IMG/VR virus record: IMGVR_UViG_3300031953_000070
Coordinates: 1-34,797 of that record
DNA: 34,797 nucleotides
Direction: 5' to 3' (one strand)
Source of the DNA: a virus
Lineage: Duplodnaviria; Caudoviricetes
The position numbers were made by a program, and so were the translations under genes. The notes below the pieces were generated by a model that saw nothing but the letters and a program-made list of their open reading frames with translations, was not told the DNA's origin and made no database searches. How positions within the stretch are numbered: position 1 is the first letter of the stretch; the number at the start of each line of letters is the position of its first letter. This document shows positions 16,068-31,192 of the stretch, piece by piece.

Positions 16068-18270
16068 AGTCCTGAAGGTTATTTATGGTGTCCTGCACCA
16101 TGGTTATCTCACAGTCACCGGTATTCAACCGGTTATTGAGCCGCAAGGGGAAGAAACTTTTCCCTCCGTCAAAATTAAATCCCACAATATCAAGCGGCCG
16201 GTACAGATTGAAACCCACGCCTTCAAGCTGGTACAATGGCTGGCTGTTTACATCCAGATAGGTTTCCGCAAGGGCCCGCTGCATGCTCCGGTCATTACCG
16301 GAATCATTGGCTTGTTTGAACCATTTGTTCAGGTACTGTAGATTTTCGGTCTGCTCGTTGGGATCGTAGCTCAGGCGGTAATAATAAAACCCGCCACCCA
16401 ACAGCGAAGGCGGTAAAAATGGAGTATCGTCTGTAGTATAGAAGTAATACGATGGCTTCGTTGAAAATGGAAATATTTTGCAATCAAAAACGATCGCGTC
16501 TGGACTTAGTTTTTTAGGATCTTCAAGATTGTTCCGTAACCGGAAATAAAGACTATCCTTATGGGTAAGCATGAGATCAACTACATAACGGCTTATTATA
16601 TATATTTCACGCCCATCTACATACTCCGTGCGATAACTGATTTTTACCTCTGTAGGTTCTGGTGGGCGCGAAGTGATAAAGAACGTGCTGTCCACCTGGT
16701 GATCTGCATTGGAAACCACCGTCAGTTCTTCGTTTATTTTCTTTGTATATTTTATGGGACGGGTGATCGTTTCCCCCAGCTTTCGCTCTTTACGGTATTT
16801 TATACTGGCTTCTTTGATTTGCGCATAGCGGAATACACCCTTTGTCCAAGTCTGCTGAATCCCATACAAGCGCATGGTGATTCTGGTATTTACGGGAAGC
16901 ACAAAATTTTTGAGATCAATGATGTAATCTATAAAGGTATTGCTACTGGGTGATGAGCTGGCTTCAATTTTAAAAGTGACTTTTGGCCGCCCTAGCACTT
17001 CTCTAAAAGAACTTATAATGGGGAAAAGGCCCGACATGATCTCAAACTTGAAAGCCTGAATGAATTCATCCCCATAGTAATCAAACTTATCCGGGCTGTG
17101 GGTTTGCCCAAAAAGCATACGCACCACTATTTTAACATCTGCCCCAGATGCAAAATCAGAAATATAAACGAAACTGGGCAACTCTATATATTTGCCGAAA
17201 GCTTCATTATAGGTGTTTGGCCTTTCATTCTTAAAGCCTACCCTATTCGGTTTGAATTCGTCAGGAGCATTTGTAGGCCGGGCGGTTCCGCTGGGAATGA
17301 ATTCGTTTATGTTATTGTCTAAGACTCCAGTAAAATCGTCGGTAAACAATTGCGCTTCCAAGCCATGATCGTCCCATCCCAATGGTTTTTTTGATGGCAG
17401 ATTTGTAAACCAAGCCACATTTGCCTGATCTACAAATTTCTGATCTATTAGCTCTGTATCATACGCCCCCTTCACATCAATCGTTGCCAATTTTACAGGC
17501 GGTTGCATCACGACCTGCGCCGCTTGCTCAAAGCCGATATTACGGATAAGCCGCTGCACTTTGCGCGTGCCCAGATATTCACCGTTCAGACTAAAATCTG
17601 CAAAAAGTATTTCACTTTCCGCAGTCCGGTTGATGCCCACGATATACCAGCGCATATCCTGCTGCACTACAAAACATCCCATCACTTTAAGCAATGTTTC
17701 TAAAATATCATAGGCCGACGGCTTATCTTCATCTTGAAATATTACGGTATTTAGCTGAACCAAATTCCAATATTGCCGTGACAATCTATTTTCTATGGCC
17801 GAAGCAATTGAAAATTCCAAGTTCAGACCGGTAAGTTCCAGACATGCACCTATCAACTGGGAAACACTTTTTACACCACGGTAAAATTCGGCTGGCAGAA
17901 AAAGACCTGATAAAGACTGTAGGCCATCTGTAGCCACAAATTCCACAAAGAAACCGCCGGCGCTGTATGGCTCACTATATTGATCTGGCAGTAAGAAGCC
18001 TGACCAGTATTTGGTATTGTTTTCGCCCCAAAGCTCCACTAAATACCGCCGTTCATCACCGGTAAAGAGTTCTTTAAAATGGGCATCCGCACCACTTTCC
18101 ACATCCATATTGAACTTAAGACTGCTCTTATAAAACTGAAACACCCGCTCGTCACCCGCATCATAACTAAGTGCTGGAGCATTGCGCTGGGCATGCTCAA
18201 ACGAAATCCCTGGGGCACCTGTCTCGTAGGTGTCCCTGATCACTATAAATAGGCATTCTTCGTTTTCCAT
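16060..18270 (-). CDS. Large tail tip/baseplate hub protein
   Basis: Follows the TMP with TAATG coupling; YWSGFLLPDQYSEPY...FVATDGLQSL motif typical of Bacteroidota phage tail proteins. Confidence 0.75.
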   Translation of the reverse strand: MENEECLFIVIRDTYETGAPGISFEHAQRNAPALSYDAGDERVFQFYKSSLKFNMDVESGADAHFKELFTGDERRYLVELWGENNTKYWSGFLLPDQYSEPYSAGGFFVEFVATDGLQSLSGLFLPAEFYRGVKSVSQLIGACLELTGLNLEFSIASAIENRLSRQYWNLVQLNTVIFQDEDKPSAYDILETLLKVMGCFVVQQDMRWYIVGINRTAESEILFADFSLNGEYLGTRKVQRLIRNIGFEQAAQVVMQPPVKLATIDVKGAYDTELIDQKFVDQANVAWFTNLPSKKPLGWDDHGLEAQLFTDDFTGVLDNNINEFIPSGTARPTNAPDEFKPNRVGFKNERPNTYNEAFGKYIELPSFVYISDFASGADVKIVVRMLFGQTHSPDKFDYYGDEFIQAFKFEIMSGLFPIISSFREVLGRPKVTFKIEASSSPSSNTFIDYIIDLKNFVLPVNTRITMRLYGIQQTWTKGVFRYAQIKEASIKYRKERKLGETITRPIKYTKKINEELTVVSNADHQVDSTFFITSRPPEPTEVKISYRTEYVDGREIYIISRYVVDLMLTHKDSLYFRLRNNLEDPKKLSPDAIVFDCKIFPFSTKPSYYFYTTDDTPFLPPSLLGGGFYYYRLSYDPNEQTENLQYLNKWFKQANDSGNDRSMQRALAETYLDVNSQPLYQLEGVGFNLYRPLDIVGFNFDGGKSFFPLRLNNRLNTGDCEITMVQDTINNLQDYE

Positions 18271-20513
18271 TAGAAACGTGAGTTTTTATTTTTCTCGCGG
18301 GTATAACTTATAAGGAGATCACTCCCTTTAATTCTGGTAGTGGCTATGAATGCCTGCGACCCGCCACTGGGCTGCATCATACCGTATAGTTTCTCCTGCT
18401 GATCTGTATTGAGTATCATTTCCTGGCTGTTTACACGGGCAAGGATCTTGTCACCGTAATAAGAGGAACCTCCTACGACGCCACCCGCTTCAAATTTTGG
18501 TATTGCGGCAAAAGCAGATAGGACACCACCCACGGCTGTAGCGATAAAAGCAGGTTGCGCAAAAACAGCGCCTGGTCCAGTAGCTAAAGCTGAAGAAGTA
18601 GCACTGGAAATAGCTTGAGAGATAGAACTCGCAAGCATCATTGAAATCAACTTTGTTATAGTTCCCGCCAATCCTTTTACAAAACCCTGAAATCCTTGAT
18701 CAGCTAATCCTAATGAGTCAACAACCCTAGAACTTAACCCGTCAAAAGCATCACCAACAGCGCTTCCTACTTGATAACCCAACTCTTGCAGGTAGTAAAA
18801 TTTATTACCTATTTCATCAAGTCCTGCTGTGATAAGATCCTTTTGCTCTGGTAATGCTGCCGCAAGTCCATCTAATGGATTGCCGACAGGCTCTATTTCC
18901 GTTTTTGCGGTTACGGTTGAGACGGTTTTCTCATTGCGGGTAAAGGAAACATCGGGCACTTTGATATTATCAAAGCTTTCAGACACCTTTTTGTTACTTG
19001 TAATAAGGCTGTCATTATCTCCCAAAAAACTGGTTAATTTATCCTGAAGCTTCCGCAGTTCGCTGCCTTCTTTACCCATATTTTCCGCAACACTGGCAGA
19101 ACTTCTGGCGGTAAACGCATACGCATTACCAGCCGAAAGGACCGCATTGCCCAGATTCTGCCAGATAGAAGGTTTTGCAGCGTCATTTTGCCCCAGTTGC
19201 AGATCAAGTAATTGCTTTTGCACTTCCACAAGCTTATCCTGCGCAGCCATTACACGCGCTTTCTGAAGCAGTGAAGTCACATAATCGTCAGTAGCGGTTT
19301 TAGCCTTATCTGTGTTTATGGTTTCCAGAGTAAGACCACCCAGATAATCCGGACTTAGCGTATTGAGTTCTTTTATGGCAGCAATACGATCTTCTTTACT
19401 TGCCGTATCATCACGGGCAACCGTGAGCAGTTTTTCTAATTGCGCCTTTTCTTCAGCAATACTACCCGTAGCACTTGCAGTAATGGAACTGAATTCCTTT
19501 TGCGCATCTGTAAGTTCCGTGAAGCGGCTATTTGCGATTAAGGCGGTTGCAGCCACAGCGGCGAGAACAGCGGCAAATGCACCTATGGGATTTGCAGCGA
19601 TCACCACACTCAATGTTTTAACGAGCGGGATAAGCGTTCCAATATTCCGTACGAGCGTACCGGTAATTATAAGTAATGGACCCAGCGCAGCGGCAAATGC
19701 GGCAACCACCACAATGGTTTTTTTAGTTCCACTGGAAAAACCATCTACAGTCTGCGCGACTTCTTTGATTCTTTTTGCAAAGGGCAGAAGCGCTTCACTG
19801 ATAATTTTACCAAAACCCTCAAGCACATCACCCAGTGTATTGCTCAATTGTTTAAAGCCACCAGCTCCAGCTTCGGCCGCAGCTTTTGCACTGCCACCGT
19901 ATTGTTTTTCCAGTTCATCAAGGATGATGTTCTGGGCATCTGCCAGCTTATTGGTTTTTACCAACGAATTGATCATTTGCTTTTGATCAACTGAAAACTG
20001 GATCCCACTACGGGAAAGTGCAGATAGATTTGCGACAGGATCATTTAAAGCTTTACCCAACTGGATAGAAGCACTTTTAAGGTCACCATCCAGACGGGTG
20101 GCAAGATCTAGCGCTGCCTGTTGGGTGCGGTCAAATTCTTTATTGGCAATATTGGTAAACGTGAGCAGCTGCGCGGTGGCATCCTTTAATATCTCTTCAT
20201 CACCAAAAAGGGAATTGTTTTGCAGTTCAGAAGCCATATCCTGCAATTGCTTGCTGGTTTTACCCACCTGATTGCCCGTAGTCTTTAAACCCTGCTCTAC
20301 CTGCGCGATGGCTTTGGCCTGCTTATCAAAGTTGGCCACCGCCACCGCACCCAGACCAAGCAGGGGCGCGGTAATAGTTAGGCTCATTTTCTTACCAACA
20401 GCCTGCATCTTTTTACCAGCACGCTCCATTGTGCGCGTGGCATTCTGAATGCCTGAACTAAAGCTACTTAGATCAGAAATAAAGCTAATTTTTACAGTTG
20501 AAAAGGCTCCGCT
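18270..20513 (-). CDS. Tape measure protein; probable 5' end at the in-frame AGC at 20513 (first ATG at 20429)
   Basis: Ala/Gly-rich helical protein ending FEAGGVVGG...ARVNSQEMILN. The frame is open from 20525 and encodes a TMP-like start (GAFSTVKISFISDLSSFSSGIQNA) upstream of the first ATG. The product call is firm; the start is inferred. Confidence 0.85.
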   Translation of the reverse strand, partial: SGAFSTVKISFISDLSSFSSGIQNATRTMERAGKKMQAVGKKMSLTITAPLLGLGAVAVANFDKQAKAIAQVEQGLKTTGNQVGKTSKQLQDMASELQNNSLFGDEEILKDATAQLLTFTNIANKEFDRTQQAALDLATRLDGDLKSASIQLGKALNDPVANLSALSRSGIQFSVDQKQMINSLVKTNKLADAQNIILDELEKQYGGSAKAAAEAGAGGFKQLSNTLGDVLEGFGKIISEALLPFAKRIKEVAQTVDGFSSGTKKTIVVVAAFAAALGPLLIITGTLVRNIGTLIPLVKTLSVVIAANPIGAFAAVLAAVAATALIANSRFTELTDAQKEFSSITASATGSIAEEKAQLEKLLTVARDDTASKEDRIAAIKELNTLSPDYLGGLTLETINTDKAKTATDDYVTSLLQKARVMAAQDKLVEVQKQLLDLQLGQNDAAKPSIWQNLGNAVLSAGNAYAFTARSSASVAENMGKEGSELRKLQDKLTSFLGDNDSLITSNKKVSESFDNIKVPDVSFTRNEKTVSTVTAKTEIEPVGNPLDGLAAALPEQKDLITAGLDEIGNKFYYLQELGYQVGSAVGDAFDGLSSRVVDSLGLADQGFQGFVKGLAGTITKLISMMLASSISQAISSATSSALATGPGAVFAQPAFIATAVGGVLSAFAAIPKFEAGGVVGGSSYYGDKILARVNSQEMILNTDQQEKLYGMMQPSGGSQAFIATTRIKGSDLLISYTREKNKNSRF

Positions 20514-20520
20514 TCGGCTA

Positions 20521-21345
20521 TTATTTTAGTTTATCAATTATTGATCTACGTTTGCAAATATTTGCAACGATATTCCATGCAATACCTGTATCAAGAGAGA
20601 TATGATGTATTATTTCACCATTCTCAAAACGCTGGCGCAATCTTCTGCGCATAGCTATCGGGTATTTATAATATTTTGATCTCTTATCATTTGCTCGTTT
20701 TTTAACTTCATCAGACATATCTTTATAGTTGTCCAAATGAGTTCCTAAAGCGATATTGTCTTTTGAATTATCCTGACAATTACCGTTTAAATGCCTTACG
20801 CAATCAGAAGTATAAACTTCATTCCCAAACTTTTGAAAAGCCTGTAATCTATGCACAAATACCTGTGACATATTGTGCTCTTTAAACGGTATGGAAAATA
20901 ATTTATATCCAAACTTATTATTGAATATTTTTTCCTCCACATCAAAGCCATTATAAAGAAGCGCTCCACAGTCATCAACTCCATAACCTAAGTGATATGC
21001 TCTTTCTGCTTTTTGCATATTTAACAAAGCTTCATTTATGATCTCCGATCCCTTCCCCAATTCAATGTTATCAATAGAACAATCTTGGGAATTAAGATTT
21101 AAATGGCGGATCAGCCTAAAATTATACAGCTTTGTTCCAAACTTCTGAAAAGCCTGTAACCTAGCTATATATATGGTTTGGGTCTTCCCATATCTTCTAA
21201 TAGAAAAATAAGTCTTACCACTTTTATTTTGCGAAGAATATTCACGGCCATTTAAATTATAGAGCGCTCCTGCTAGCGATACCCTAAAACCTTGATTATA
21301 GGCCTTTTCCTCTGGTTTCATGTTTTCATAAGTTTCTTTTTTCAT
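20521..21345 (-). CDS. HNH homing-endonuclease-like protein with tandem duplicated HNH domains and C-terminal HTH
   Basis: RLQAFQKFG...RHLN.N.QD.S.DNI.LG occurs twice; the second copy has intact VHR/HLNG/DN/N; AT-rich DNA. Confidence 0.8.
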   Translation of the reverse strand: MKKETYENMKPEEKAYNQGFRVSLAGALYNLNGREYSSQNKSGKTYFSIRRYGKTQTIYIARLQAFQKFGTKLYNFRLIRHLNLNSQDCSIDNIELGKGSEIINEALLNMQKAERAYHLGYGVDDCGALLYNGFDVEEKIFNNKFGYKLFSIPFKEHNMSQVFVHRLQAFQKFGNEVYTSDCVRHLNGNCQDNSKDNIALGTHLDNYKDMSDEVKKRANDKRSKYYKYPIAMRRRLRQRFENGEIIHHISLDTGIAWNIVANICKRRSIIDKLK

Positions 21346-21349
21346 GATA

Positions 21350-21604
21350 CTACGCGTTTAAAAGGTTTGATTTAAAGGACGTATAATCTAGATATGGAAA
21401 GTGCTGATAAAGGGCATAATAATCCATAGAAACTTTCATAAAAGCTTCTTCACAACTTTTAGAAAAAGGTAATTTTTTAAAATAGCAAGCGACAAACCCA
21501 CCAGGCTCGGCTAGTTTCGCTACATAGATTTCTCTCGGGGTGTAATAATCGGCTGTAAAAGCTGTTTTTGAGGCATTTCTGCCAATTTGTTCGTTGTTTC
21601 GCAT
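21350..21604 (-). CDS. Hypothetical protein, paralogue of the gene downstream of terL
   Basis: MRNNEQ...LAEPGGFVACYFKKLPFSKSCEEAF...YLDYTSFK aligns with 30922..31182. Confidence 0.7.
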   Translation of the reverse strand: MRNNEQIGRNASKTAFTADYYTPREIYVAKLAEPGGFVACYFKKLPFSKSCEEAFMKVSMDYYALYQHFPYLDYTSFKSNLLNA

Positions 21605-21760
21605 AACGTAAAAATTTGAGTTAAGAGCATGAAGAGATGGGTCGCTGCGAAACAACGAACAATTATGGTAATTGTAGGAAGATGCGATACTTTCACTCGC
21701 TCGCCCATCTCTAGGCTCATATGTTTTTTTTGAAGTACCATAATTAAAATTGTTTCGCAT
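21587..21760 (-). ncRNA. c4/CI-like antisense RNA with its upstream and downstream target sequences
   Basis: Stem AGAGATGGG/CCCATCTCT (21633-21641/21704-21712) encloses 21646-21670, which is complementary to 21587-21603 (17 nt), 21736-21745 and 21750-21759. Confidence 0.65.
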
Positions 21761-21762
21761 AG

Positions 21763-21792
21763 CGAAGATACACAAAAAAACAAAAGATGCAA
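21763..21792 (-). promoter_or_regulatory. Bacteroidota-type promoter for the c4-like cassette
   Basis: -7 box TATCTTCG (one mismatch to TAnnTTTG) and -33 TTG, 19-nt spacer. Confidence 0.55.
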
Positions 21793-21819
21793 GTATTAAT
21801 TTCATAACTTCTTGTTTTG

Positions 21820-21891
21820 TAGCGGTGGCGGGTATCGAACCCACTACCTCTGGCAAAGCACGCCAGCGAGCTGCCATTGCTCCACACCGCG
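21820..21891 (-). tRNA. Initiator (fMet)-scaffold tRNA-like gene with anticodon GCT and an atypical anticodon loop
   Basis: CGCGGTG-TG-GAGC-AATGGCA-GCTC-G-CTGGC-GTGCTTT-GCCAG-AGGTA-GTGGG-TTCGATA-CCCGC-CACCGCT-A. Full cloverleaf with C1xU72 mismatch, A11:U24, short variable arm and no encoded CCA. Confidence 0.85.
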
Positions 21892-21893
21892 AT

Positions 21894-22254
21894 TTATTCT
21901 TCTTTTAGTTCATCCACTTTATCCCAGAAATCACTCGATTTTATGGGTATAATGGCTATTATTTCTTTTTTATCCCACGGTAAAGAGAGCGTTTCAAGCA
22001 GTTTAGCACCTTTTTTAAGATGCGGCTTGATGCTTATAAATGCATTGTACCTGGTAATTTCCCAGCGCTCCCTGCTTTCGGCTTCCTGTTTGCGGGAATA
22101 GCCCACTACCTTATTTTCAAACTGGCGCGGCGTCATTGAATAAAACTGCGATGGCGATAAATCAAGTTCACCAATAGCAAGTTCCTCAAGCTGGTCCCAG
22201 GTTACTTCTTCCTCTTTTTCGGGCTTGCGGGCTTTGCCGGATTGCTTTTTTTTT
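21894..22254 (-). CDS. Tail assembly chaperone C-terminal extension (gpT-like), reached by -1 frameshift
   Basis: The -1 frame is open from the A9 run through EEVTWDQLEELAIGELDLSPSQFYSMTPRQF...RERWEITR. Confidence 0.8.
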
Positions 22255-22561
22255 CTTGAGGAAAGCTGGCGGCAAAGACTTCCATGATCTCAGCCATTTT
22301 AGTCGAATCATAGATTACTTCGCCTATGATAAGATCCTGGTCCTCGTCAAAGTCTCCCTGAATACCGCTGAAAATAACATCGCGCAGATCATCTATCTGC
22401 TCAAAGGTGGGATCTTCGCCCATGTCTGAAAACTTCGACAAACGCTTAATGAGTTCGCCGAAGGTTTTAATGTTCCAGATTTTGGAAAGCGTACGATGGC
22501 TTCCATAGTTGAAAGCTATCGTATACTTTTTACCGTTTATTTCAATCACTGGTTTTCTCAT
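22202..22561 (-). CDS. Tail assembly chaperone (gpG-like)
   Basis: IEINGKKYTIAFNYGS; lies between the tail tube and TMP genes. Confidence 0.8.
   Translation of the reverse strand: MRKPVIEINGKKYTIAFNYGSHRTLSKIWNIKTFGELIKRLSKFSDMGEDPTFEQIDDLRDVIFSGIQGDFDEDQDLIIGEVIYDSTKMAEIMEVFAASFPQEKKSNPAKPASPKKRKK
22246..22254 (-). other. Programmed -1 ribosomal frameshift slippery site
   Basis: GAA AAA AAA AGC gives an in-phase A AAA AAA heptamer. Confidence 0.75.
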
Positions 22562-28189: not shown

Positions 28190-28218
28190 TTTTTAACCTA
28201 ATTAAATACTAACCAGGG

Positions 28219-28267
28219 CAAACATACGGGGCGAAGGGAGGTGATTTATGTATAATGTTTACATTAT
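28219..28267 (-). promoter_or_regulatory. Putative late promoter before the portal gene with an upstream palindrome
   Basis: -7 box TATGTTTG (28219-28226); palindrome ATAATGT-TT-ACATTAT (28252-28267); no clear -33 TTG. Confidence 0.55.
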
Positions 28268-28324
28268 TGAATTAATTGTGGGTGATTTTAGGGGTTTTTT
28301 GATTAGTTTATTATTTGCAGGGAC

Positions 28325-28492
28325 CTACAATAACACAATAAGAATGAAGCCTATTATTACCATTAGCACCACTACGACTAACATAAAGCCACTTCCTGTA
28401 TCTTGCCCTACAACCATGGGATCGTTAATTAAATCATCCCACGCGATATAATCATCTTCCTTAAGTTTATCTAAATAATTCTTGTCAATCAT
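28325..28492 (-). CDS. Small membrane protein (55 aa)
   Basis: MIDKNYLDKL...GFMLVVVVLMVIIGFILIVLL. Confidence 0.5.
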   Translation of the reverse strand: MIDKNYLDKLKEDDYIAWDDLINDPMVVGQDTGSGFMLVVVVLMVIIGFILIVLL

Positions 28493-28525
28493 AATTATGG
28501 TTTAGAAATAATTTATATATTTTTA

Positions 28526-28547
28526 ATTATGGCGAATTCGCCATAAT
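28526..28547. repeat. Perfect 22-bp palindrome
   Basis: ATTATGGCGAATTCGCCATAAT just past the recombinase stop codon. Confidence 0.8.
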
Positions 28548-28553
28548 ATCTAC

Positions 28554-29357
28554 TTAATTAATTAAGCTTGTCAAATTTCTGGCAGAATCAATCGAGGTTT
28601 CCACATAAATGCGAGTGGTCTTTTCGTTTTTATGGCCTAGGGCATCCTGTATTTTAGCCAGATCATTACCGGCATCATACAAATGCGTGGCGAAACTTTT
28701 TCTAAGGGAATGAAAACGGTATTTTTTACCGATATACTTTTTTACGATCGCGGTGCAGCTGGATGGGGAATATTGCTGCCGCCAGTCCTGACCAGTGAAT
28801 ACGTACTGCTTGGTTTTATATTCCCTGAAATACGCAATCAGCATATCGATTATTCCTTCTGAAATAGGCGTGTACCGGTCTTTTGCACCTTTACCGTCAC
28901 GCACCAGAATAACGCCCTGGTCCCGGTCAATATCCTTCCACTTCAAACTGATCACTTCTGAAACACGCAGCCCACAGCCATAGCCCAGCGCTATGATTGA
29001 CCGGTGTTTTAAGTTGGCTATCCGCGGTAGCACTTGAAGGATGTGATTTCTAGGAATAACGGGCTGCTTGTGCGTGACTTTACGCGGCCGTTCAATTTTA
29101 TCTAAATGAACCTGAGATTTACCAAGAATATATTTTGCAAATAGTTTTAAACTGCCTATAATCTGGTTTTGCTGCGAAGTGCTTTTATAATTTCTGTTTT
29201 CCAGATAATCTTCAATTTGCTTTTGCGAAACCTGATGCGGGTCTTTAATATTCTCATTTTTAAAGAACTCCTGAAGATAGTGGGTGTAAACTTCTATGGT
29301 TCTTTCCGCATAGCGCTTGTATCTTAATTTTCTCATGTAAACTTCCAGAACTTTCAT
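28554..29357 (-). CDS. Integron-like/XerD-like tyrosine recombinase
   Basis: SAM-like N-terminus YAERTIEVY...STSQQNQ; GLRVSE, GKGAKDR, HSLRKSFATH, LGH, TTRIY. No IntI-specific insertion is visible. Confidence 0.9.
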   Translation of the reverse strand: MKVLEVYMRKLRYKRYAERTIEVYTHYLQEFFKNENIKDPHQVSQKQIEDYLENRNYKSTSQQNQIIGSLKLFAKYILGKSQVHLDKIERPRKVTHKQPVIPRNHILQVLPRIANLKHRSIIALGYGCGLRVSEVISLKWKDIDRDQGVILVRDGKGAKDRYTPISEGIIDMLIAYFREYKTKQYVFTGQDWRQQYSPSSCTAIVKKYIGKKYRFHSLRKSFATHLYDAGNDLAKIQDALGHKNEKTTRIYVETSIDSARNLTSLIN

Positions 29358-29418
29358 AAGTGGTTAGTGTGTTAGTAAGGGTTAGTTAATAGGGTGGGGT
29401 TATATGGGTGTTGTATGC
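29358..29418 (+). other. attI-like site
   Basis: GTTAGT repeats at 29363, 29371 and 29381, then core G|TTGTATGC at 29410. Confidence 0.6.
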
Positions 29419-29428
29419 AATTGCCTAA

Positions 29429-29680
29429 TTACCATTTTTTAAGCTTAGTATCTAAGCCCTTGCCTCTTAATGTTTCCCAATCTTCGTCGGTCACATCTTT
29501 CGGCAACTGTTCGCTTTGCCCTACAACACGGTCTATAGATAATTGCTGGTCAGCGTACTTTTGCATGGCATTTTTTATATCCGCAAAGAGGTTTCCGTTA
29601 ATTTCTCCTGTTTCAGATATATAATTTAAATTTGCTTTATTAGGCTTGATTTCGTTTATAAAATCCTCTTTTGTCTTCAT
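29429..29680 (-). CDS. Cassette 1 ORF, hypothetical
   Basis: 83 aa; QLSIDRVVGQ is encoded by the attC left arm. Confidence 0.7.
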   Translation of the reverse strand: MKTKEDFINEIKPNKANLNYISETGEINGNLFADIKNAMQKYADQQLSIDRVVGQSEQLPKDVTDEDWETLRGKGLDTKLKKW

Positions 29681-29742
29681 TTTTATTTGGTTAAGTTATT
29701 TTTTAATTCTGCAACAATCCATAGACTAATCCGTTGTAGTGC
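29518..29742 (+). repeat. attC-like site 1
   Basis: CTACAAC-ACG-GTCTATAGATAATTGC ... GCAACAATCCATAGAC-TAATCC-GTTGTAG. Confidence 0.7.
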
Positions 29743-29743
29743 A

Positions 29744-30028
29744 TTAAGTATATACATATCTACAATCAGGCTCGTGGCAAATATCGGCTTCATCTGTAAT
29801 GGTAACTTCTGTACTTCCACACCAAACACATTTGCTATGTTCTGGGTGTTCCTCGCTATTTACTTTTAAGTGAGAATAGTCGTTACCATCAGAATAACGC
29901 ACTACAACACTATGTATAGTTAATTGCTCTATTGCGAATTTTAAAGTTGAGTAGGCGGCATTGCTCACATCTTTACTTTTGTGAAGTTCTTCAAGTGCTG
30001 TGCTTATTTTTTTTGTATCGTAATTCAT
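29744..30028 (-). CDS. Cassette 2 ORF with C-terminal zinc ribbon
   Basis: 94 aa; QLTIHSVVVR comes from the attC arm; CVWC...CHEPDC. Confidence 0.7.
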   Translation of the reverse strand: MNYDTKKISTALEELHKSKDVSNAAYSTLKFAIEQLTIHSVVVRYSDGNDYSHLKVNSEEHPEHSKCVWCGSTEVTITDEADICHEPDCRYVYT

Positions 30029-30097
30029 TTGTTTTTATTTATTAAATTCAGTTATTAATTTGTTCGCAACCATCCATACCACCAGACCGTTCTAAAC
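29899..30097 (+). repeat. attC-like site 2
   Basis: GCACTACAAC-ACTAT-GTATAGTTAATTGC ... GCAACCATCCATAC-CACCAGACC-GTTCTAAAC. Confidence 0.7.
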
Positions 30098-30238
30098 AAT
30101 AAAAACAATATTGGTATACCCCCATTTTACAAGCAGATCATTTGCCCTCTTTTTAGTTGTTTCTCGTATACGACCATAGACCTCATTATTTTCCTCATTT
30201 TTAGCCTCATACTTAAATTCTTTAAAATTTAGTCCCAT
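30092..30238 (-). CDS. Cassette 3 ORF (48 aa), hypothetical
   Basis: MGLNFKEFKYEAKNEENNEVYGRIRETTKKRANDLLVKWGYTNIVFIV. Confidence 0.6.
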   Translation of the reverse strand: MGLNFKEFKYEAKNEENNEVYGRIRETTKKRANDLLVKWGYTNIVFIV

Positions 30239-30254
30239 ATTTATTGTTTTTACA

Positions 30255-30386
30255 GTTAAGAACACGGTATAAAATCCAGTCTTACGCGTGTTTGGTTAAT
30301 TTGTTTTACTCAATTTGTTTTGGTGTGCTTGCCGTCAAATTCCTACGGAATTATGACGACCGTATCTTATACTAATCAGTTAGTAT
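30255..30386 (+). repeat. attC-like site 3
   Basis: GTTAAGAAC-AC-GGTATAA ... inner hairpin 30333-30358 ... TTATACT-AATCA-GTTAGTAT. Confidence 0.7.
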
Positions 30387-30560
30387 TTATTTTTTAGAAA
30401 AAGCCTGGTAAAACCTAAACCCCACCGCTATAGTGATCAGCATTAGCAGCGCTACCCATGCAATTCTAAAATTATTAATGGCTATATAGTCTAGATCAAG
30501 AAGCATTGTTTCAGCAAAAAGAATGGCCAGCGTACTTATTATGGTTATGACTTGTTTCAA
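30387..30560 (-). CDS. Small two-TM membrane protein (57 aa, TTG start)
   Basis: MKQVITIISTLAILF...IAWVALLMLITIAVGFRFY; TTGA-coupled to the upstream gene. Confidence 0.5.
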   Translation of the reverse strand: MKQVITIISTLAILFAETMLLDLDYIAINNFRIAWVALLMLITIAVGFRFYQAFSKK

Positions 30561-30925
30561 GGTTTTGATTTTTGTTTGTTAATTTCCTGCAGGGCTAATC
30601 GCGTTTTTGCGGTCATGGCGATTATGTGAATTTTCAGGCGTTGGCAAATCGTTATTTCAGTCAACATGCCTTCGCTTATCCGATCGCCATAAAGCCATAT
30701 TTCGTTGACCATGCCACTTTCAAGAATGGCCCGGTTATTACCCATGCCCCGGTTGCGTTGCTTTGGATCTGTATCATCAAGCACCATGCAATCTGTCATG
30801 TAGGGCACAAAAGGAACAATGTCGCGCCGGGCAAGGTTAAGCGCATGCACGATCTCCTTTATTTTTTCAAGGTTTTCAAAAACTGATGGGCTGCCCACTG
30901 GATGGGCGATATATACTATTTTCAT
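30557..30925 (-). CDS. DUF4406-like / nucleoside deoxyribosyltransferase-like fold protein
   Basis: IVYIAHP...PFVPY...EIWLYGDRISEGMLTEI. Confidence 0.7.
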   Translation of the reverse strand: MKIVYIAHPVGSPSVFENLEKIKEIVHALNLARRDIVPFVPYMTDCMVLDDTDPKQRNRGMGNNRAILESGMVNEIWLYGDRISEGMLTEITICQRLKIHIIAMTAKTRLALQEINKQKSKP

Positions 30926-31182
30926 TTTTTGGATTTATAATTTTTACAGCAAAGGCGAAAACTGTTGTAATCTGAATACCGCCAATCACCAAATATCTCA
31001 AAATACTGGTCATTTACATCGTTAAATGCTTCAATCTGGGTACGTGAACTTGGCAATATTTTAAAATAATGCTGAAAAAAACCTTCAGGCGTGCCCAGAA
31101 GTCGGGCGAGCGCGTAATTTTCTTCCGCAGATTTTAATTTTTGCTGAATAGCATTCAGTTCATGTGTTGTAATAATGGGCAT
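30922..31182 (-). CDS. Hypothetical protein directly downstream of terL
   Basis: GFFQHYF...EAF..VN..YFEIFG..RYSDYNSFR; likely start MPIITT at 31182. Confidence 0.7.
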   Translation of the reverse strand: MPIITTHELNAIQQKLKSAEENYALARLLGTPEGFFQHYFKILPSSRTQIEAFNDVNDQYFEIFGDWRYSDYNSFRLCCKNYKSKK

Positions 31183-31192
31183 GATTTCGATT

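Follow-up and report, generated by a model that had tools for sequence, protein, structure and literature searches.

How is translation of a phage tail gene begun when the codon at its expected start is AGC? The question is raised by the tape measure protein (TMP) gene of IMGVR_UViG_3300031953_000070, a 34.8-kb virus record of the Caudoviricetes, taken whole (hereafter the window, meaning the whole stretch of 34,797 nucleotides (nt) analyzed here). Judging from sequence comparisons, we consider it about 85% probable that this AGC and a tRNA with anticodon GCU encoded upstream of it constitute a private phage initiator-tRNA system that starts the TMP. The observations that carry this reading are the AGC codon, the initiator body of the tRNA, the co-occurrence of the two, their covariation across phages, and multiple distant targets of related tRNAs. 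The features concerned are the following:

18270..20513, minus strand: tape measure protein gene, 747 codons counted from AGC
20511..20513, minus strand: AGC codon at the Met position of the TMP, putative private start codon, placed by homologues and by a relative with ATG there
20514..20518, minus strand: GCCGA context before AGC, in which A at -1 faces U37 and G at -2 faces U38 of the tRNA
21820..21891, minus strand: initiator-bodied tRNA with anticodon GCU (21859-21857), called by ARAGORN and Rfam

The TMP frame is open from a stop codon at 20528-20526 and reads AAT AAT AGC CGA AGC GGA GCC TTT. A re-reading of the frame returned the same codons as a preliminary description of this DNA, and bore out its claim that no ATG, GTG, TTG or CTG occurs before 20429: with AGC 20513 as codon 1, ATT first occurs at codon 9 (20489) and ATG at codon 29 (20429), while the first CTG, GTG and TTG are codons 51, 57 and 90. 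The closest TMP homologues open with MAAFSTV (P0002, 92% identical, P0003 and P0004) or MGAFSEL (P0005), and the window reads x-GAFSTV; because homologues begin M-A/G-A-F-S-T/E, their Met falls on AGC 20513-20511. The same position is given by a relative devoid of a 1,380-nt block found in the window, in which the end of the chaperone gene is followed by TAG, ATG, and then a codon aligning with GGA of the window, so that this ATG aligns exactly with AGC. Of the two AGC codons initially considered, the one at 20511-20513 is thus retained on the basis of the homologue alignment and of the ATG in the relative, and the one at 20519-20517 is ruled out, the Met of the homologues aligning with 20513. 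Only one of the 42 YGA-AGC sites in the window opens a long open reading frame (ORF), and it is the TMP. A sequence error at the TMP start had to be considered, and the same letters were found in contigs of three sequencing runs: those of runs X2 and X8 cross the start with zero differences, although they are not fully independent of the window (the window may itself derive from X2, and the record in X8 is near-identical to it), and a piece from run X10 over 20490-20628 is likewise identical.

The tRNA with initiator features and anticodon GCT that had been noticed about 1.3 kb upstream of the TMP was recovered by both ARAGORN and Rfam (tRNA model match of 44.8 bits, with the 1-72 pair flagged as non-standard). 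It begins 2 nt past the stop codon of the chaperone gene, folds as a cloverleaf in silico, and is separated from the TMP by a structured leader and an HNH endonuclease gene. Its acceptor end displays a C1xU72 mismatch, G2-C71, C3-G70 and A73, with no encoded CCA, and therewith the unpaired 1-72 of fMet type and the 2:71 and 3:70 pairs that are determinants for Fmt. The D-stem contains A11-U24, as do the tRNAfMet copies of Flavobacteriaceae hosts, and a purine 11-pyrimidine 24 pair is an initiator feature in bacteria. The anticodon stem comprises G29-C41, G30-C40 and an inverted C31-G39, the loop reads G32 U33 G34 C35 U36 U37 U38, the variable loop has 5 nt, and the anticodon is GCU instead of the CAU of bacterial tRNA-fMet. 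ARAGORN labels this tRNA an elongator tRNA-Ser(GCU). Elongator tRNA-Ser has a long variable arm, G73 and a paired 1-72 as SerRS and EF-Tu features, and the label is ruled out by the 5-nt variable loop, A73 and C1xU72.

Anticodons and start codons in other phages

TMP loci were gathered by protein alignment alone, a normal start being an ATG, GTG or TTG no more than 10 codons from where the start was expected, with the tRNA sought in the 1.5 kb upstream. Among 160 loci, 37 were left out (35 with a match beginning after residue 40, and L027 and L033, which contain N runs), and 123 could be scored. A normal start and no upstream tRNA were found in 121 of these. The two loci without a normal start, L018 from a Pukyongia metagenome-assembled genome (MAG) and L028 from a Flagellimonas MAG, both carry this tRNA just upstream, together with the codon exactly cognate to it (Fisher p 1.3e-4 for start loss versus tRNA, a guide value, as many of the 123 loci are related). 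The tRNA loop of L018 reads UU GCU UU and codon 1 of its TMP is AGC; that of L028 reads UU CCU UU and codon 1 is AGG, directly past an in-frame TGA. The anticodon therefore covaries with TMP codon 1 (GCU/AGC in L018, CCU/AGG in L028), as the preliminary description had predicted, and the arrangement that it had named as refuting, relatives with the tRNA that keep ATG at the TMP, occurs in none of the 123 loci. In L028 the first GTG of the TMP is codon 83 and the first ATG codon 579. Neither L018 nor L028 has the HNH cassette, and only 22-31 nt lie between tRNA and codon. The TMP of L028 (4992-7112) has 2 Met codons in 707, and a few homologues are equally low.

Scans of viral contigs with the TMP or the HNH protein as a single query returned only the window's own kin or distant matches, and the exact 24-nt tRNA pattern was found in two viral stretches and one metagenome stretch, all of one phage type. 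No new case emerged from tRNA patterns run over 401 genomes of the family of G001 and 401 of its order, and seven further matches in one of these two scans were no commoner than in a reversed control.

Broader patterns (initiator-type D-arm, non-CAU anticodon) were run twice over viral contigs and yielded 17 and 56 stretches, which overlap and include some ordinary tRNAs; several matches with a paired 1-72 were set aside as other tRNAs (e.g., L204, L215, L238, L244, L259). The records then examined were 14 long ones, two of them (G408, G417) in part, and six short loci. Since A11-U24 was built into the search patterns, its presence in these loci is no independent evidence; 1-72 did not belong to the patterns. 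The related tRNAs carry the anticodons ACU, CCU, GUU, GAC, AAC, UAC and UAU, and 14 of the 20 records yielded candidate targets whose first codon is the cognate one, as many as 11 genes in a single record. These targets are virion and lysis genes, some of which open at the exact Met position of their orthologues. They lie up to 25 kb from the tRNA and on both sides of it, a distance that points to a tRNA acting in trans.

In G410 (CCU) the major head gene reads AGG-ALFER where homologues of 78-88% identity read M-ALFER. In G409 (ACU) five genes open at AGT, including those for the portal, a capsid-like protein and a head-tail adaptor, and in G406 (CCU, U37 G38) the TMP, an endolysin and a third gene open at AGG preceded by C/T-A. 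The largest set is that of G416 (UAC, A37), with eleven late genes at T-GTA, among them portal, protease and TMP. One gene opens at G-AAC in G408 (GUU, C37) and one at C-GTA in G418 (UAC, G37), for two target genes of L239 (UAU) the orthologues show ATG in that very place, and G420 has three weak candidates. In G411-G414, L234 and L253 (AAC, GAC), small Arg-rich and other genes open at GA-GTT or GA-GTC. As a separate observation, L208, L253, L234, G411-G414 and L294 are gut Bacteroides-type phages with several such Arg-rich genes opening at GTC/GTT, which interleave with ASCH, PAPS-reductase-like and ParB-like genes ahead of the terminase. In G416 (L284, L285) every one of the T-GTA-R starts is overlapped by an NTG-stop of the -2 frame, which in 8 of the 11 is ATG-stop; met by the host tRNAfMet, these start-stops are a possible decoy or evolutionary route.

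In a blind test over 12 records, the four-mer was predicted from the tRNA and its enrichment scored among sites with a Shine-Dalgarno-like motif. The motif accompanies 10 of 14 T-GTA sites in G416 (rank 1 of 235 four-mers, p 1.1e-5); the predicted four-mer ranks 1 of 223 in G409, also first in L239, and second in G420. A strict RCYGA motif within 2.5 kb gave RCYGA-GTC ORF starts in 16 of 17 GAC loci. Among orthologues the start changes between AGT, GTA and ATG, or between ATA and ATG, its position being the same or a few codons away, and homologous genes switch GTC/GTT with the anticodon (weak protein similarity, E 5e-5 and 0.002). An alignment of 18 tRNAs (16 chosen phage tRNAs with targets plus close kin, and two host tRNAfMet) has 1-72 unpaired in all 18 rows and the other 20 pairs 100% paired, 13 of them with changes on both sides. 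Finally, the cultured Bacteroides phage BS-TP2 (GenBank PQ571275.1) encodes an unannotated GAC tRNA, and the frame of its gp53 extends to GCTGA-GTC, 11 codons ahead of the annotated ATG.

The sequence context follows the loop of the tRNA in part. R-C-Y-G-A recurs ahead of the cognate codons in other phages with U37 U38 tRNAs. Base 37 can pair with -1 at every one of 23 sites picked by hand, a count that is partly circular, many sites having been picked with that filter; unfiltered support comes from G416 (10/11) and from sites fixed by homology. At the same 23 sites, -2 and base 38 form G-U in 19, a Watson-Crick pair in one, and are unpaired in three, and +4 is a purine in 21, which is common after ordinary starts too. 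The pairing beyond the anticodon that had been suggested is therefore upheld for base 37 with -1, which tracks across phages, and partly for base 38 with -2. Pairing of base 39 with -3 is dropped, as it shows no tracking (G406, G410); the R-C-Y at -5 to -3 is conserved without being matched by the tRNA stem.

The proposed initiator and competing explanations

We propose that the ATG of the TMP was replaced by AGC and that the phage tRNA(GCU) would start the TMP in trans, tail assembly then depending on the phage's own tRNA. The tRNA would be excised from the late transcript and receive its CCA (step 1), and a host synthetase would charge it (step 2); under the identity rules, C35, U36 and A73 could suit mischarging by MetRS or charging by ArgRS. 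The C1xU72 end would lead to formylation by Fmt and keep the tRNA out of elongation (step 3), and IF2 would deliver it to the P site, where GCU would read AGC, with specificity added by U37 pairing with A(-1) and perhaps U38 with G(-2) (step 4). The TMP would then be made only when the phage tRNA is made (step 5), because host tRNAfMet(CAU) cannot read AGC.

Given the mechanism, we put at about even odds that its purpose is to lock a late gene a second time, at translation, either to prevent leaky expression in the lysogen or to set the timing; that the TMP is the sole target in the window favors the locking of a single indispensable tail gene. Of the three purposes put forward in the preliminary description (timing, stoichiometry, or escape from a defence targeting tRNAfMet), the escape fits this phage poorly, since the 15 other window genes that were checked begin, as called by the ORF lister, with ATG (14) or GTG (1). 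More generally, it seems quite likely that phages of several bacterial groups evolved orthogonal initiator tRNAs (with at least the anticodons GCU, CCU, ACU, GUU, GAC, AAC, UAC and UAU) and private four- to five-base start signals, with start residues that would be formylated and need not be Met. They would form a master translational switch ranging from one gene (TMP) to most of the virion operon, and annotation would truncate or miss the genes and mislabel the tRNAs.

Published work bears on feasibility in both directions. In the passages available from one preprint, an engineered E. coli initiator tRNA(CCU) paired with AGG gives the largest gains in most strains (bioRxiv 2026.04.16.719103), and passages of another describe an engineered initiator tRNA(AAC) that is charged with Val and initiates at GUU, formyl groups being present on ~30% of N-termini (bioRxiv 2025.12.21.695813). 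Initiator base 37 is described as pairing with the mRNA -1 base (PMC10018350, in part), and G30 as the key anticodon-stem base needed in E. coli (PMC5389676, in part); G30 is kept in the window tRNA(GCU) and lost in the GAC type.

Several points weigh against the initiator we propose. That same GAC sub-family has C30-G40 instead of G30, the G32/U37/U38 loop of tRNA(GCU) is unusual and can close to 5 nt, and the rule of three G-C pairs at 29-31/39-41 is followed only in part, the third pair being inverted. According to the part of PMC11744186 consulted, an engineered GCU initiator misfolded and gave <35% translation in vitro, and CCU was poor there; the stem of the natural GCU tRNA differs from that of this engineered initiator. 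In the blind test, 8 of 12 records gave no significant four-mer enrichment, although one to three targets per record lend it little power. The strict motif was found within 2.5 kb in only 5 of 16 AAC loci; two of those without it have their target 4.2-4.3 kb away in a variant context. Lastly, no target was found in 6 of the 20 records (G407, G415, the part of G417 examined, L225, L187, L182). The three long ones among these (G407, G415, G417) have a Watson-Crick 1-72 pair, and L182 and L187 are short G406-type pieces. The tRNAs of these three long records (L194, L236 and L209, respectively) have an initiator-like D-arm, the anticodons CGC, UUU and UAC, and a paired 1-72, and may be decayed or elongator forms.

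The odd loop (G32, U37, U38), the conserved R-C-Y without counterpart in the tRNA stem, the lack of G30 in the GAC type and the closeness of tRNA and codon in L018 and L028 (at most ~35 nt) would also suit an RNA that pairs with the codon as an uncharged P-site mimic or trans-acting activator, translation proceeding from codon 2 or nearby. The intergenic internal ribosome entry site of dicistroviruses, a tRNA-mimicking pseudoknot, is the model for such a mimic. We regard this explanation as improbable: the formylation determinants (1x72 mismatch, G2-C71, C3-G70), needless for a mimic, are kept across anticodons, targets lie up to 25 kb off on either side of the tRNA, and the three long target-less records have 1-72 paired.

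It is very unlikely that the HNH cassette destroyed the ATG and that the host tRNAfMet now starts the TMP at the near-cognate ATT 20489 or at ATG 20429, the tRNA being an unrelated passenger. The HNH gene does abut the TMP start, and ATT, ATA or ATC stands at codons 7-9 in all three Flavobacteriaceae-type cases; however, the TMP family conserves Ile at 7-9, and a start at ATG 20429 would lose the eight near-invariant columns that lie upstream of it in a 40-sequence TMP alignment. L018 and L028, moreover, have no HNH gene, and the exact codon/anticodon match in every case and the change from GCU/AGC to CCU/AGG would be left unexplained.

We give hardly any credence to the idea that the start is restored in the RNA when a self-splicing intron or bypassed segment is taken out. 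In its favor, relatives lack the 1,380-nt block, an HNH gene and structured RNA lie within it, and its boundaries can be set so that U precedes it and G ends it. Against this, the block has no Rfam intron match up to E 1, and cutting it out yields ATC, not ATG. In addition, L018 and L028 have just the tRNA and 22-31 nt ahead of the codon, and distant targets in many genes cannot be spliced to one tRNA. A dead TMP gene that lost its start and is untranslated, or an assembly error, is just as implausible, for although the contigs are metagenomic only and a second recombinase block lies inside the head module of the record, the letters are identical in contigs of three runs, the 747-codon frame is intact, and the same arrangement recurs in two other genomes with a compensatory change.

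The optional block and the phage that carries it

Around the tRNA and the TMP start lie the following features:

~20512..21891, minus strand: block missing from relatives, 1,380 nt, delimited by joints in three runs
20521..21345, minus strand: HNH endonuclease gene, 274 amino acids, internal duplication, Pfam HNH_3, absent from L018 and L028
21350..21815, minus strand: structured leader of the HNH cassette, inverted repeat, fold z = -3.06
21894..22561, minus strand: tail assembly chaperone pair (22561-22202 plus an overlapping frame to 21894), upstream neighbour in the same late operon

The three joints (runs X2, X8 and X10) belong to co-occurring relatives with ~85-88% identical flanks that are net 1,380 nt shorter. 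As in homing endonucleases, the gene encodes an HNH domain and its presence is optional among relatives; it is a passenger between tRNA and start codon, and the cassette may help the block spread. Its last codons (DKLK, 20535-20524, minus strand) repeat the end of the chaperone gene (21914-21900); these 12 nt are exactly what precedes ATG in the insertion-free relative, and HNH homologues end four residues earlier. This repeat looks like a duplicated junction left behind by the insertion. An HNH homologue (P0128) and a TMP called from an internal Met (P0034) have common sources and contigs of equal length (22,129), and are probably another locus with HNH and an ATG-less TMP.

The leader contains a perfect 17-nt inverted repeat (21587-21603 / 21646-21662) and a competing partial copy (21750-21764), such that three copies of a 15-17-nt motif within 21587-21764 (minus strand) can pair in alternative ways, and this modeled folding suggests an RNA switch ahead of the HNH gene. 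No Rfam family was assigned to the leader, and no look-alike was found among the other loci collected; a separate Rfam scan of the whole window at gathering score missed even the tRNA. A possible ORF of 84 codons lies within it (21604-21350, minus strand), with no family in Atlas or Pfam.

The minus strand of the window carries a late module of siphophage type (terminase, portal, protease, head, connectors, major tail, chaperone, tape measure, tail, holin), and integrases are encoded in the same record. An A-run at 22254-22246 inside the chaperone pair is presumably its G/GT frameshift site, a pattern known from such genes. Between terminase and portal, a 3-kb block (28190-31190) encodes a further tyrosine recombinase (29357-28554) along with DUF7768 and small ORFs, and is possibly another inserted element. 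As the named TMP homologues come from Flavobacteriaceae, the host is probably a member of this family. All 13 listed sequencing runs are brine metagenomes, and at least half of the window's words are present in 11 of them; no RNA data set is among the runs listed. A promoter scan of the window was uninformative for a host of this type; a Bacteroidota-type promoter near 21770 is at most a guess from a motif.

Comparison with known systems

In the textbook account of bacterial initiation, AUG and a handful of near-cognate codons are all read by one tRNA (CAU). If true, the occurrence in phages of another natural initiator that has a codon to itself would break this one-initiator rule and provide a gene-specific translational switch for late genes. 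It would also offer components shaped by evolution for orthogonal initiation, a field in which charging and formylation set limits to the engineered tRNAs. Annotation is predicted to err systematically in such cases, and the TMPs of the window and of L018, the head protein of G410 and gp53 of BS-TP2 are all called from internal starts. Because BS-TP2, which has the GAC/GTC version, is cultured, this system is directly testable. Full-text literature searches, with subscription papers mostly outside their reach, brought up no phage initiator of natural origin with a private codon, but engineered systems, non-AUG starts that use the host initiator, and elongator tRNAs of phages; no such system is described in the parts seen of PMC3073962 and PMC13092985.

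The nearest counterparts are the engineered orthogonal initiators of E. coli (CCU/AGG, AAC/GUU, UAC/GUA and others), which, in the passages seen of the two preprints (bioRxiv 2026.04.16.719103, 2025.12.21.695813), likewise combine an initiator body, a non-CAU anticodon and a cognate non-AUG start. The anticodons CCU, AAC and UAC occur in both these passages and the phages, and GCU/AGC is not among the engineered pairs given there. As expected for orthogonal initiation, a cognate non-AUG codon covarying with the anticodon was found at the target starts. Unlike the engineered initiators, the phage system is natural, its anticodon arm is rebuilt, and bases 37/38 are matched to the mRNA context. 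With bacterial tRNA-fMet (PMC5389676, in part; Flavobacteriaceae host L290-L293) the phage tRNA shares C1xU72, G2-C71, C3-G70, A73, the GAGC/GCUC D-stem with A11-U24, G29-C41, G30-C40 and a short variable loop, but it has GCU instead of CAU, an inverted third G-C pair, and G32/U37/U38 in place of C32/A37/A38. Quadruplet pairing of base 37 with -1 recurs as U37:A(-1) here, A37:U(-1) in G416, C37:G(-1) in G408 and G37:C(-1) in G418; the part of PMC10018350 seen describes a modulating effect at AUG via mutants, whereas the phages present natural variants with private codons.

Free-standing HNH homing endonucleases are known from phages. The block described here resembles them in being optional, beside an essential gene and absent in relatives; unlike the usual case, the endonuclease gene is a passenger, and the tRNA/start-codon pair exists without it. 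Real genes outside ATG, GTG and TTG are known as well: E. coli infC starts at AUU, read by the host tRNAfMet, and Streptomyces sigR reportedly has a GTC start. Such natural non-AUG starts use the host initiator under IF3 control, whereas AGC and AGG here have a dedicated cognate tRNA. Late and lytic phage genes are also said to be placed under stop-codon recoding with suppressor tRNAs, reportedly by Borges et al. in 2022. There too, a tRNA-dependent feature of the code is limited to late genes and has been proposed as a regulatory lock, but stop-codon recoding works at elongation and over many codons, whereas the phage initiator would act once per gene and leave the code unchanged.

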